From the IMG/VR virus record IMGVR_UViG_2541047907_000004, positions 1-43,411 of that record: a stretch of 43,411 nucleotides of DNA. One strand, written 5' to 3'. The translations under genes were made by a program, and so were the position numbers. Below are positions 5,893 to 8,907 of this stretch, piece by piece. Under the pieces are notes generated by a model. The model did no database searches. It saw nothing but the letters and a program-made list of their open reading frames with translations, and was not told where the DNA came from. This DNA is from a virus. Taxonomy: Duplodnaviria > Heunggongvirae > Uroviricota > Caudoviricetes. Within the stretch, counting starts at the first letter, position 1. The number at the start of each line of letters is the position of its first letter.

Positions 5893-6147
5893 ATGGCTAG
5901 AGATGATCCGCACTTTAACTTCCGTATGCCTATGGAAGTAAGGGAGAAATTAAAATTCAGGGCGGAGGCGAATGGGAGATCAATGAACTCCGAGTTGTTA
6001 CAAATCGTCCAAGATGCTCTATCAAAACCATCGCCTGTGACTGGCTATCGCGACGAAGCTGAACGCTTGGCTGATCAGCAGGCAGAGCAGTTCAAGACTG
6101 TTGTGTTTGAGACACTTAAAAAGATTTATGGCAAGGATGATAAATAA
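5893..6147 (+). CDS. mnt: Mnt repressor (maintenance of lysogeny; ribbon-helix-helix)
   Basis: 84 aa MARDDPHFNFRMPMEVREKLKFRAEANGRSMNSELLQIVQDALSKPSPVTGY..., matching remembered P22 Mnt; divergent from arc. Confidence 0.9.
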   Translation: MARDDPHFNFRMPMEVREKLKFRAEANGRSMNSELLQIVQDALSKPSPVTGYRDEAERLADQQAEQFKTVVFETLKKIYGKDDK

Positions 6148-6683
6148 TGCTGCACACAATTCATTTCTTATGCCCCGTTAACACCGCCACTGTTGGGCAA
6201 CTTCAGAACCACTGTCTCACCGCATTATCTCAAGGCGCAACTGAATTAAATATCCATATATCAAGTCAGGGAGGGGAAACTGCCGCTGGTTTTACTGCGT
6301 ATAACTTTCTTAAGTCACTCCCTGTTGCCGTTAGAACTCACAACATAAGCAATGTTGAATCCATAGCTAATATCGTTTTCCTGGCTGGCTCAGAACGTTT
6401 CGCAAACCCATTATCAAGATTCCTGTTACATCCTCTATTATGGGGCTTTGCCACCCCAGCCGCCGACCATGCCAGATTGAGAGAGTACGGGAAATGCCTC
6501 GATAACGATCTTGATCGCTTCGTTGAGACGTTCAATATCGACATCGGAACCCATATTAGGTGGGCATCCCTGATAGCAGACTCGACCATTTTGGATGCTA
6601 ACAAGGCTCTTGAGCATGGCATAATTAATTCCATAAAAACTGCAAGGCTGGTATCCAATCAGGCAAACTGGTGGGTTGTTTGA
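6147..6683 (+). CDS. ClpP-like (S14 family) serine peptidase-fold protein, translationally coupled to mnt
   Basis: 178 aa; ATG overlaps the mnt stop (TAATG); blocks HISSQGG, ISNVESIANIVFLAG and SRFLLHPLLWG align with ClpP YINSPGG, GQAASMGAFLLTAG and SRVMIHQPLGG (from memory), with Ser and His at triad positions. Confidence 0.6.
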   Translation: MLHTIHFLCPVNTATVGQLQNHCLTALSQGATELNIHISSQGGETAAGFTAYNFLKSLPVAVRTHNISNVESIANIVFLAGSERFANPLSRFLLHPLLWGFATPAADHARLREYGKCLDNDLDRFVETFNIDIGTHIRWASLIADSTILDANKALEHGIINSIKTARLVSNQANWWVV

Positions 6684-6760
6684 TGGGTAAATCATGATTA
6701 CTCCTATGGCCGGAAAGATTCGCATCCTTAAATTTAGTGAGCAAGGATTACCATCACACC

Positions 6761-6946
6761 TCAACAGCTTCCGCGTCCCTGAGTAATTCTGTCGCGGATT
6801 TGCTTCTTACGGTGGTTTAAGCTGGAGAGCTTGGCTTCTGCTTCTGATATTTGCGCATCAAGATCTTTAAGCTCAAGATCTGAAAGTCGCTGGTCAAGCA
6901 GGGTTTGGTTCAACTCAATGTTGTTCAGGCGTTCTTCTATGGTCAT
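6761..6946 (-). CDS. Small coiled-coil protein (61 aa), unknown function
   Basis: ATG preceded by AGGAG RBS; sequence MTIEERLNNIELNQTLLDQRLSDLELKDLDAQISEAEAKL... has heptad-like repeats; convergent with the ClpP-like gene. Confidence 0.4.
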   Translation of the reverse strand: MTIEERLNNIELNQTLLDQRLSDLELKDLDAQISEAEAKLSSLNHRKKQIRDRITQGRGSC

Positions 6947-7087
6947 GATTTCTCCTTGTTGAGGTTGATGTGAAACGATTGATTGTATACGCACTCTTTT
7001 GTTAGCTAGTAGCTTTGCTTAATCGCAAGATAAAGTTTCTGATTAATCCCTAAAAATCAAAAAATAAAGTTAAAACAGGTACATGAT

Positions 7088-7291
7088 ATGGAATGGATCA
7101 TAGGATTTGTTGTTCTTATCTTCATAGCCAGTATGTTTAAACCAAGAAGTTGCGATATCTGTGGTGCTGGATTTAAGAAAAAGTACTTCACATGGACTAT
7201 CGATGGAAAGAAACAGCATCTTTGTCCGTACTGCAACAGTAAAATGGAGAGACGCAACAGCGATAGACGCTTTAAGGATCGATTTGGTTAA
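7088..7291 (+). CDS. Small membrane-anchored zinc-ribbon protein (67 aa), unknown function
   Basis: N-terminal hydrophobic segment IIGFVVLIFIASMF followed by CxxC...CxxC (CDICGAG...CPYCNS); followed by a strong terminator. Confidence 0.45.
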   Translation: MEWIIGFVVLIFIASMFKPRSCDICGAGFKKKYFTWTIDGKKQHLCPYCNSKMERRNSDRRFKDRFG

Positions 7292-7306
7292 CCATTTTAT
7301 CTCCAA

Positions 7307-7337
7307 CAAAAAAACCCACCTGACGGTGGGTTTTATT
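7307..7337. terminator. Bidirectional intrinsic terminator (acccacc-tgac-ggtgggt, A-run upstream, T-run downstream)
   Basis: Perfect 7-bp stem, 4-nt loop, flanked by aaaaaaaa and ttttatt; serves convergent genes 7088-7291 (+) and 7336-7755 (-). Confidence 0.7.
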
Positions 7338-7755
7338 AGTGCTTGTATAGGTTGAACTCTCTATCAAGCCATATAACAAAAAATGTCGATCCAAGACGAT
7401 AACCAACCATGGCTTTCAAATCATCAAATCTAAAAGCCAAGAAATGATCTACGTCTTCCGTTATATGACCGGGGATACCAGCTTTAATTGCACCCCTTGC
7501 AATCTTCTCAAATCCAAGCTTATGCCTACCTTGCTGCTTAATCTCTGCCCATGTTAGTTGACTTAATCTGTATAATTTATCAGCTAAGCCAGCTTTCTCA
7601 TCTTTTTGGCATTTCGTTATGCAGTGAGAGCTTTGGATGTAACAGAATGAAAATTTCGGTTTCTTTTGATCTGAATTCCCCCCTGACTGCGGCCCTAACT
7701 TTAACTTACCTGTAGATTCAGCAGGGGGGATAATCCTTTTAGATTTTCTTGCCAT
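7336..7755 (-). CDS. Unknown 139-aa protein downstream of and coupled to the DUF4065 gene; candidate toxin/effector
   Basis: ATG at 7755 lies 4 nt after the upstream gene's stop; basic N-terminus, C-x6-C-x3-C cluster, beta-rich C-terminus ending ...GYRLGSTFFVIWLDREFNLYKH; the ORF also has an upstream in-frame start at 7830 overlapping the neighbour. Confidence 0.45.
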   Translation of the reverse strand: MARKSKRIIPPAESTGKLKLGPQSGGNSDQKKPKFSFCYIQSSHCITKCQKDEKAGLADKLYRLSQLTWAEIKQQGRHKLGFEKIARGAIKAGIPGHITEDVDHFLAFRFDDLKAMVGYRLGSTFFVIWLDREFNLYKH

Positions 7756-7759
7756 CTCG

Positions 7760-8209
7760 TTAGTTAATCCGAGTTGCAAAGTACTCTGCCATCTCCTTAG
7801 AGCTAATTTCAGAACCACCAACACCCTCAATATAGTTTGATCTCCATGGTGACTCTTCGTGTGTCATGTTCCTCAGTTTCCAGGCAGAAAATTGCCCAAA
7901 AACATCCCAGACTTCTTCTAATAGCTCTAACTGTTCTTCGCTGAATTTTTCAGCATCAAAAGACTCTGGAGAAGGGATAGCTCCATTACCATATTGTTTA
8001 TAACGGCGATAAAGCTCAGGGACAACAGGGCCATGCATCCAAGCTTCCATCTTATTCTGAAAAAGAGGCTCACCAAGCAACGCCAATGAAAACCCCTGAG
8101 CATAGTAAACAAGCTTTTGTAATTTTAAATTAGAGATTGTGTCACCGCTATCCTCGTCACACCGCGACAGGAAGTAGTCGGCGACATCAAAACAAGTAAG
8201 CATGAACAC
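7760..8209 (-). CDS. DUF4065 / Panacea-domain protein (GepA/SocA-like), candidate antitoxin
   Basis: 149 aa; GGAGG RBS 5 nt upstream of ATG; motif block NLKLQKLVYYAQGFSLALLGEPLFQNKMEAWMHGPVVPELYRRYKQYG matches my recollection of the DUF4065 family signature. Confidence 0.65.
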   Translation of the reverse strand: MFMLTCFDVADYFLSRCDEDSGDTISNLKLQKLVYYAQGFSLALLGEPLFQNKMEAWMHGPVVPELYRRYKQYGNGAIPSPESFDAEKFSEEQLELLEEVWDVFGQFSAWKLRNMTHEESPWRSNYIEGVGGSEISSKEMAEYFATRIN

Positions 8210-8577
8210 ACCTCCATCTTGATAGCCACAGCTAAGTATCCAACTATGTCAAATGTCATTTAATACTATAACAAAGCTATCAGCAATCCTTCGGAGGCTA
8301 ACTTACAACCACTTTAGCGACATGTTTAAACCATTACGTTTCACATTTACTGCATTTTCGCCGAAGTTACCTATAAGGTAATGTCACATTTCCTGCAAGT
8401 TTCATGCAATGTTGAAAAGTGAGCTATTCACTTTTCTATGACACTAAACACCAAAAATAGCACTTTTTGCTAAATCATTCGTCCAAGTTGTGGATGGTTT
8501 GTCGTTGACACGTTTTCACACACCACTCCACCAATAAAGTATCATCTGGTATCCTGCTCAAAACTAAGGAGGTTGGT

Positions 8578-8907
8578 GTGCTTGAATGGTTTCTGTTGGC
8601 TGCATTAGTCGTTTCTGGTTTGGTGTATGAGTATCGAATGCACTCTCTAACAAAAAAAATAGGAATTCTAGAAAACGAATATTGTGCTCTCAAATCCTCA
8701 CTGGAACGTGAGCAAGGGTACTTAAAAATCTCTCTGTCTAGCATTGAGCGTTCTATAGAGAGCTTAGAGGATAAGGTTGATCGTATAAAGAATGAGGATA
8801 TTCATGATGTTAAGGACGACATATCCTTCTTAAAATCTTGGTTGAAAAATGTTGGGAAAATTGCCACATCAACACGAGATAAGCTCAATCCATCCATGGA
8901 TGACTAA
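8578..8907 (+). CDS. Small membrane-anchored coiled-coil protein (109 aa), unknown function
   Basis: GTG start 7 nt downstream of AAGGAGG; N-terminal TM helix WFLLAALVVSGLVYEY followed by a charged helical region; convergent with gp16-like gene. Confidence 0.4.
   Translation: MLEWFLLAALVVSGLVYEYRMHSLTKKIGILENEYCALKSSLEREQGYLKISLSSIERSIESLEDKVDRIKNEDIHDVKDDISFLKSWLKNVGKIATSTRDKLNPSMDD

Follow-up and report, generated by a model that had tools for sequence, protein, structure and literature searches.

Probably separate cargo modules, including a truncated ClpP paralogue and a PanA-PanT pair, in the variable slot between mnt and gene 16 of a P22-like argW prophage

Introduction

Do the small genes between the repressor gene mnt and the ejection-protein gene 16 of a P22-like prophage form one working system, or are they separate passengers of a variable locus? 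This question is raised by IMG/VR record IMGVR_UViG_2541047907_000004, a P22-like (Lederbergvirus) Escherichia coli prophage of 43,411 nt integrated at argW; the whole of this stretch is called the window, and all coordinates given below are positions in it. The island (6147-8907) encodes a ClpP-like protein, two small proteins (o61 and o67), a protein with a DUF4065 (Panacea) domain and its partner (PanA and PanT), and a membrane protein (o109). An initial annotation proposed that the DUF4065 protein is a SocA-like proteolytic adaptor that feeds its partner to a Clp-type protease with the ClpP-like protein of the island as a subunit, and itself called this link weak, with its components outside a single operon. 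That caution was well placed, the ClpP-like gene and the panA-panT pair being convergent and in different operons; the adaptor model itself found no support in either the assortment of the genes or the known mechanism. All six open reading frames (ORFs) lie at the positions and in the orientations first assigned to them, and none of them is a chance ORF because each has homologues elsewhere in family and homologue searches. PHROG families matched o61, PanT, PanA and o109 with E from 3e-44 to 7e-66.

We consider it likely that the island is a variable moron slot of this P22-like argW prophage, built by recombination from four probably separate and probably lysogen-expressed modules. The first would be a ClpP paralogue whose gene is spliced to the 3' end of mnt; it would always be produced together with the Mnt repressor and behave in lysogens like PpClpP1, a truncated ClpP from Pseudomonas plecoglossicida. 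The second would consist of o61 with an optional, divergent o67 that encodes a small membrane zinc-ribbon protein, and the third of the panA-panT operon together with the upstream region and the terminator that belong to it. PanT would be a putative mRNA endonuclease of RelE/HigB fold that PanA most likely neutralises by direct binding (type II), and the most likely role of the pair would be that of a latent toxin in defence by abortive infection or in retention of the prophage. The fourth module would supply an HkcB-like single-pass membrane protein in the position and orientation of P22 sieA. HkcB, o61 and o67 would all be small lysogen-expressed proteins, with HkcB and o67 in the membrane.

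Mosaic structure of the island

Of 5,426 complete E. coli genomes, 654 matched some part of window positions 5500-9300, and EPSSH018 (98.7% identity) alone had the whole island arrangement; the island is a mosaic. The same breakpoints recurred at ~6119, ~6950, 7304-7309 and 8547-8580. DNA homology to P22 mnt stops at the first of these, matches covering the ClpP-like gene and o61 end at ~6950-6957, and matches to the PanAT region alone start at 7304-7309 in other genomes, which is the position of a terminator. On the right, the matches of phiv205-1 and Salmonella phage Emek end at ~8580, and that of HK620 starts at ~8547. The island consists of four separately assorting modules: the ClpP paralogue; o61 with or without o67; the terminator, panT, panA and the adjoining non-coding gap; and the HkcB homologue.

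Loci in the IMG/VR database showed the same patchwork. Among 45 loci with the ClpP-like gene (at least 90% identity), PanT was present in six, o61 in nine and o109 in five. The 16 loci with PanT all carried PanA, with the ClpP-like gene in three, o61 in two and o109 in three, and the 58 loci with o109 included the ClpP-like gene in five cases, PanT in four and o61 in six. The G+C content was 0.35-0.43 across 6900-8850, compared with 0.46-0.52 in the flanks. The island has the features of a moron in its opposite orientation and own terminator, its lower G+C content and its patchy presence among related phages; own promoters were not detected for the island genes by a consensus scan.

Assortment of the ClpP-like gene and the PanAT pair

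Co-variation of the island genes across related prophages, the comparison suggested with the initial annotation, did not emerge for the window alleles: PanAT and the ClpP-like gene were statistically independent. The analysis took the 654 complete E. coli genomes matching the region as its denominator and counted genomes. The ClpP-like gene was found in 128 of them and the window PanAT allele in 48, always as a pair; 10 of these 48 pairs adjoined a ClpP-like gene against 9.4 expected (odds ratio 1.09, p = 0.85), and the 10 included six near-identical "Res13" isolates and three avian pathogenic E. coli (APEC) strains with identical scores. A second PanAT allele, with a PanA 71% and a PanT 52-58% identical to those of the window, occurred in 34 genomes and adjoined the ClpP-like gene in 22 (6.7 expected; odds ratio 8.9). 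When either allele was counted, 32 of 82 pairs were adjacent to a ClpP-like gene, with 16.0 expected (odds ratio 3.2). At the DNA level, the terminator and the final ~25 codons of panT are common to both alleles. Most ClpP-like genes (96 of 128) had no PanAT pair beside them, and 50 of the 82 PanAT pairs had no adjacent ClpP-like gene.

The same separation held at greater distance. Neither PanA nor PanT was encoded at any of 35 distant viral ClpP-like loci, no ClpP-family neighbour was present at three distant PanAT loci (Aeromonas, Solidesulfovibrio and Acidobacteria), and the ClpP-like gene and PanAT were never found together outside P22-like phages in the loci sampled. For the window allele, co-occurrence of the three components above chance and across contexts was not detected.

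About 17 of the 22 adjacent second-allele cases were human isolates of ~5.0 Mb with identical scores, and these are probably one clone. In the second-allele arrangement, seen in locus L007 (6438-7315), the pair lies only 52 nt from the ClpP-like gene, and linkage through shared descent therefore explains the enrichment adequately. In E. coli ETEC1749, the second PanAT allele adjoins a ClpP-like gene that has lost its 5' part and starts at nucleotide 225; annotated as hypothetical, this copy is an apparent scar of decay or recombination.

A truncated ClpP paralogue coupled to mnt

The ClpP-like gene (6147-6683, plus strand) encodes an N-terminally truncated ClpP paralogue of 178 amino acids (Pfam CLP_protease, E = 6.8e-12). 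Its alignment to E. coli ClpP starts at about residue 38, and the N-terminal ~37 residues, which hold the canonical axial loops and dock the unfoldase, are missing; matches to the NCBIfam ClpP models reached 22-41 bits against cut-offs of 228-361. Across 41 family members, Ser72, His95 and the oxyanion-hole motif SSxGG do not vary. In place of the catalytic Asp the window protein has Ser146, with Ser, Ala or Thr at this site across the family, and the canonical Ser-His-Asp triad of ClpP is absent from the window protein, the third position being non-acidic. Asp145 was considered as the third triad residue and rejected, because Ser146 aligns with that position of E. coli ClpP and of PpClpP1 alike.

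The best match in both structure and sequence was PpClpP1 (PDB 9UXT; PLoS Pathog 2026, PMC12900304), the shortest ClpP characterised, to which the window protein is 38% identical. The two proteins are similar over their full length in sequence and fold, comprise ~180 amino acids, lack the N-terminal axial-loop region and retain the catalytic Ser and His beside a non-acidic third residue, which is Pro in PpClpP1. Unlike PpClpP1, the window protein is prophage-encoded, is coupled to a repressor gene and has a C-terminal NWWV(x)C tail (residues 174-178) that is conserved in its family and absent from canonical ClpP; pairwise alignment with PpClpP1 matched only the first Trp of this motif. PpClpP1 forms a homotetradecamer with a dilated 42.7-Å pore, uses a Ser-His-Pro site that needs its Ser and His but not its Pro, shows peptidase activity 13-fold below that of ClpP2 and does not bind ClpX; with the canonical ClpP2 it forms a hetero-tetradecamer that is more active and ClpX-driven (PMC12900304). 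That study treats PpClpP1 as a chromosomal paralogue and makes no mention of prophages. By analogy, the window protein should assemble into open-pored tetradecamers, have a weak peptidase activity based on Ser and His and fail to dock ClpX itself, and it may form mixed rings with host ClpP.

The ATG of the ClpP-like gene overlaps the mnt stop codon by 1 nt (TAATG, 6145-6149), and because of this overlap the gene is part of the mnt operon and no separate unit; as judged from this arrangement, its translation appears to be coupled to that of mnt. A mnt-type gene lay directly upstream in 44 of the 45 P22-type IMG/VR loci. The homology to P22 mnt stops 28 nt upstream of the mnt stop codon, and the ClpP-like module therefore carries its own last ~9 mnt codons (...YGKDDK*). 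The same YGKDDK ending and 1-nt overlap are found in locus L007 (5601-5849), where Mnt is only 45% identical to that of the window.

Relatives with 52-60% identity occur as lone, oppositely oriented genes between the terminase and lysis genes of lambdoid phages, and also between tail genes of Mu/P2-like phages. At 34-55% identity, relatives were found in the early region of a Proteus prophage, on a phage-like contig from a betaproteobacterium, and at seemingly ordinary chromosomal loci of Massilia/Telluria (L174, L177) and an Actinomycetota metagenome-assembled genome (L169), where they sit near xanthine dehydrogenase or between dnaE and hisD. Because of these ordinary-looking chromosomal loci, the family of truncated ClpP proteins is not exclusively phage-borne. 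The phage-borne relatives of ClpP1 move as single genes between unrelated temperate phages, and the copy coupled to mnt suggests a modifier of host proteolysis, expressed in lysogens, that has apparently been overlooked so far. A wider scenario, which we regard as speculative and rather unlikely, is that truncated ClpP paralogues spread as single-gene accessory elements in temperate phages of Enterobacterales, and that the mnt-spliced copy, made in every lysogen, would form mixed rings with host ClpP and re-tune ClpXP/ClpAP to the benefit of the prophage, through lysogeny stability, superinfection defence or faster turnover of antitoxins such as PanA.

PHROG and NCBIfam labelled the protein as a head-maturation protease (E 1e-13 to 1e-20). 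We dropped this label, the gene lying outside the head genes in every context inspected and PpClpP1 being the better match; to our knowledge, P22-like phages use no prohead protease. PADLOC returned no match for the ClpP-like protein, and literature searches on this gene in P22-like phages or in prophage defence gave nothing relevant.

The PanA-PanT pair

On the minus strand, panA (7760-8203) encodes a standalone Panacea/DUF4065 domain of 147 amino acids (Pfam SocA_Panacea PF13274, 87.2 bits against a cut-off of 25.7, E = 1.9e-24), and lies 4 nt upstream of panT (7336-7755), which encodes a PanT-type putative toxin of 139 amino acids (phrog_8366, E = 7e-66). For PanA, the 147-residue form, with an ATG at 8203 after a GGAGG ribosome-binding site (RBS) and the same PGAP call in EPSSH018, is most likely to be preferred to a 149-residue form with a GTG start. 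WP_089622957.1, to which PGAP assigns the EPSSH018 counterpart, and Emek YP_006560565.1 each share 99% identity with the window PanA, and the Emek pair as a whole is likewise 99% identical to that of the window. The supplement of Kurata et al. 2022 (PNAS, PMC8832971) lists YP_006560566.1/YP_006560565.1 and WP_077635758.1/WP_089622957.1 as PanT/PanA of cluster pT1/T1, whose toxins were predicted as "mRNase" by HHpred. The window pair belongs to this type II toxin-antitoxin (TA) family, with nearly the same proteins and the antitoxin gene upstream; PanA-PanT is already catalogued in the literature and is not new.

The predicted structure of PanT has a RelE/HigB/YoeB-like alpha/beta fold over residues ~33-139, recognised by fold comparison and preceded by ~30 basic, disordered residues. 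Homologues extend from Enterobacterales to Acidobacteria, with M1, E83, R109, R120, D131, Y137 and H139 invariant or nearly so. Like the RelE/HigB/YoeB mRNA interferases, PanT has a conserved Glu and Arg, and its conserved C-terminal Tyr-x-His is, we presume, reminiscent of the catalytic C-termini of HigB and YoeB. Unlike them, it carries the extra basic tail and lacks any match at the sequence level, so that the likeness is known here from the predicted fold. No Pfam family matched PanT, and a PDB search with a 63-sequence profile gave no hit at E up to 10. PADLOC yielded a weak match only, to the C-terminus of NsnC (E = 9e-6), with none for PanA, and the weak NCBIfam match of PanT to MAG6450_fam (E = 0.03) lay under the cut-off; literature on that family yielded nothing.

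The two-gene operon is strongly conserved. PanA accompanied PanT in 16 of 16 IMG/VR loci and in 48 of 48 E. coli genomes, and the order of antitoxin then toxin, with a 4-nt spacing or an overlap, was kept in every locus examined across phyla. Distant pairs were found in an Aeromonas P2-like prophage, on an Acidobacteria contig where no phage genes lie close by, and in Solidesulfovibrio (L103/L104, 4475-5239), where the pair adjoins a portal gene of P22 type. In the Solidesulfovibrio locus, a gene for a trypsin-like serine protease lies 1.1 kb downstream of the pair; this is a single case and probably a coincidence.

The antitoxin shares its Panacea domain with SocA of the Caulobacter crescentus type VI system SocA-SocB, and falls well below the equivalog model for SocA itself (NCBIfam NF047745, 71.4 bits against a cut-off of 190). 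Unlike SocB, a clamp-binding toxin, the window partner has a RelE/HigB fold. SocA-SocB depends on ClpXP, a dependence not known from other PanA proteins; PanA neutralisation works in strains without ClpXP and Lon, and PanA and PanT co-purify (PMC8832971). A follow-up paper found that standalone Panacea domains can neutralise directly (PMC10440598).

Alternative explanations

That PanA, acting as a SocA-like adaptor, hands PanT to a Clp protease containing the ClpP-like subunit of the island, all as one system, seems very improbable. PanA does share the SocA domain (Pfam SocA_Panacea E = 1.9e-24, with a weak NCBIfam match to SocA), but its 71 bits compare with an equivalog cut-off of 190, and the fold of PanT is that of RelE, not SocB. 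The ClpP-family gene lies only 650 bp from panT, but the genes are convergent, with separate promoters and operons. Adaptors such as SocA deliver substrates to ClpX and not to ClpP, and SocA-type adaptors reportedly act through ClpX (Aakre et al. 2013); the ClpP-like protein lacks the N-terminus that docks the unfoldase, and its homologue PpClpP1 does not bind ClpX. Although the second PanAT allele adjoins the ClpP-like gene in 22 of the 34 E. coli genomes that carry it, the window allele assorts independently of it (10 seen, 9.4 expected), 96 of 128 ClpP-like genes and 50 of 82 PanAT pairs stand without the other adjacent, and the two were never together in the loci sampled outside P22-like phages. 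Kurata et al. (PMC8832971) point out that type II and type VI modes need not exclude each other, but in the same study neutralisation was independent of ClpXP and Lon and PanA-PanT complexes were pulled down. A looser synergy appears quite unlikely as well: the truncated ClpP would mix with host ClpP, raise ClpXP/ClpAP activity in lysogens and alter the turnover of labile proteins, possibly PanA-type antitoxins and phage regulators, with TA neighbours mildly favoured and not required. This would be consistent with the more active, ClpX-driven hetero-tetradecamers of PpClpP1 (38% identical) and ClpP2, although binding of the E. coli phage protein to E. coli ClpP would follow by analogy, and 38% identity allows a different quaternary behaviour. 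Coupling of the gene to the lysogeny repressor mnt, the YafO-family toxin gene beside it in APEC E19019 and the enrichment of the second PanAT allele next to it also fit, but this enrichment is confounded by clonality and physical linkage, and most ClpP-like genes lie in phages with no recognisable TA neighbour.

Several observations weigh against our preferred reading of separate, lysogen-expressed modules with a latent toxin among them. The enrichment of the second PanAT allele beside the ClpP-like gene (22 of 34 genomes) qualifies the complete independence of PanAT and the ClpP-like gene, and might reflect some mild selective benefit of that combination. The consensus scan detected no promoter for o61, o67, panAT or o109, including the intergenic region between o61 and o67. 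Finally, the Emek toxin YP_006560566.1 and the E. coli toxin WP_077635758.1, which are 99% identical or closely related to the window PanT, were "not toxic" when expressed from pBAD33 in E. coli (PMC8832971). The last result is the core of a further alternative, which we judge unlikely: the pair would be no working TA system in E. coli, the RelE-fold protein being non-toxic (degenerate, or with a regulatory or other role) and the pair a neutral passenger or serving another purpose. Both tested representatives of the cluster behaved in this way, and the weak PADLOC match to NsnC, with none for PanA, would also be consistent with it. Strong purifying conservation across phyla, which includes the candidate catalytic residues and the C-terminal Y-x-H, and the preserved gene order and spacing argue against this alternative. 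Moreover, the tested constructs bore non-native N-terminal extensions. The published Emek and E. coli toxin annotations overlap panA by 62 and 20 nt and are 22 and 8 residues longer than the 139-residue form, and the toxicity tests used these 161- and 147-residue proteins; M1 of the 139-residue form is invariant in 63 homologues, which supports a start at 7755 over 7779 and 7830. Judged from this alignment, the published non-toxic constructs probably had the wrong start, and their extra N-terminal residues may matter for the negative result. Defence toxins may need a phage trigger. Kurata et al. (PMC8832971) also state that a protein found non-toxic in E. coli may be a toxin all the same. The 139-residue start, differing from that of the tested constructs, is a concrete reason for a renewed toxicity test.

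The main value of these comparisons is negative, in that the story of a private protease with its adaptor and toxin can be set aside and the region annotated as separate modules. The truncated ClpP type, the PanAT pair and the variability of the slot have each been described before, and most of the region is nothing out of the ordinary; what is new is modest and concerns mobile, phage-borne members of the truncated ClpP type, the splice to mnt in P22-like prophages and the probably wrong starts in the published PanT constructs.

Terminator, gap and transcription units

The bidirectional intrinsic terminator that the initial annotation placed between o67 and the DUF4065 pair is real. It lies at 7304-7334, ends o67 on the plus strand and the panA-panT operon on the minus strand, and forms the left boundary of the PanAT module; its 10-bp GC-rich stem (AAAACCCACC/GGTGGGTTTT) is accompanied by T-runs on both strands, with z = -2.3 and -3.1 on the two strands. 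Neither the interval from the ClpP-like gene to o61 nor the junction of o109 with gene 16 contains a terminator. Searching the island against Rfam at a permissive threshold returned this hairpin as the only match, far under every gathering score.

The non-coding gap at 8204-8577 moves with the PanAT module, the phiv205-1 and Emek matches reaching to its right end and the HK620 match starting just inside it. Divergent promoters and operators are presumably located there. Two copies of a direct repeat, TCACATTT(A/C)CTGCA, stand 43 nt apart (8341-8354 and 8384-8397), and a perfect 9-bp inverted repeat, GAAAAGTGA-n5-TCACTTTTC, lies at 8414-8436; both are candidate operator sites for panAT or o109. 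The initial annotation had described a 368-bp promoter-like gap here: the gap stands, and its promoter-like character would be a matter of interpretation, the consensus scan having detected no sigma-70-like promoter in it. Its count of at least four transcription units is consistent with the five that gene orientation suggests. Its view of the island as independently expressed cargo fits the alternating orientation and the shared terminator, but not the ClpP-like gene, which overlaps the mnt stop codon.

The small proteins o61, o67 and o109

The gene for o61 (6761-6946, minus strand), preceded by the RBS AAGGAGA, encodes a predicted coiled-coil protein of 61 amino acids that matches phrog_7586 over its full length (E = 3.3e-44) and corresponds to orf61 of Salmonella phage Emek. 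The o67 protein (7088-7291, plus strand; 67 amino acids) combines an N-terminal hydrophobic helix with a CxxC...CPxC zinc ribbon. Its homologues, in Yersinia and others, have 67-72 amino acids and 65-97% identity, with C22, C46 and C49 invariant and C25 present in at least 90%; Pfam zinc-ribbon matches were weak. The two genes were found together at a constant spacing of 142 nt in four IMG/VR loci and about six complete genomes. In addition, o67 occurs without o61 as a lone opposite-strand gene in the tail region of a Yersinia myovirus, and next to a YafO toxin gene in a further immI slot of P22 type. PADLOC gave no match for o67 and weak matches only for o61 and o109.

The o109 gene (8578-8907, plus strand), with a GTG start after AAGGAGG, encodes a protein of 109 amino acids with an N-terminal transmembrane helix and a coiled coil (phrog_5962, E = 9e-61), and is 96% identical to hkcB of HK620 in the same position. 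It lies tail-to-tail with gene 16, reaching directly to the stop codon of that gene in all 58 loci, and is a fixed neighbour of it and hardly the cargo first proposed. Like P22 SieA, o109 is a small membrane protein encoded in the same place and orientation, immediately after gene 16. Relatedness to SieA was considered and rejected, no alignment with P22 SieA (type A only) being obtained at E up to 100.

The slot and its surroundings

The initial annotation saw the island as accessory cargo in the sieA region, and the comparison with other phages bears this out: at this site P22 carries orf59a, the mnt terminator and sieA, and HK620 (NC_002730) carries hkcC and hkcB; the slot of the window lacks sieA. 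Leavitt et al. 2024 (PMC10883804) located sieA between genes 16 and 9 and found it in only 22 of 66 sequenced P22-like phages; the variability of the slot between genes 9 and 16 was known before. Another P22-type prophage carries a YafO-family toxin gene in this slot, downstream of an Arc/Mnt gene (L185, 2551-2988), and in E. coli APEC E19019 a YafO-family toxin gene lies directly beside the ClpP-like gene in the same slot. The slot seems to collect TA modules.

On the left of the island, the prophage adjoins tRNA-Arg(CCT) at 1009-1083, followed by the tailspike gene (2466-4547, minus strand), ant (4648-5571, minus strand), the sar RNA (5573-5640, Rfam 81 bits), arc and mnt. The last (5894-6147, plus strand) encodes an Arc/Mnt-family repressor of 84 amino acids and opens the operon in which the ClpP-like gene comes next; its translation matches P22 Mnt, and PGAP annotates the counterpart in EPSSH018 as an Arc family DNA-binding protein. 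On the right, genes 16, 20 and 7 follow. Gene 16 (8908-11028, minus strand), annotated as a DNA transfer protein in EPSSH018, HK620 and Emek alike and acting in ejection, is the right border of the slot, where the minus-strand late operon resumes. Further along, in the minus-strand region of the prophage, an ALIL frameshifting pseudoknot (27026-27142, Rfam 120 bits), with ORFs at 26745-28127, marks an insertion sequence of the IS3 family.

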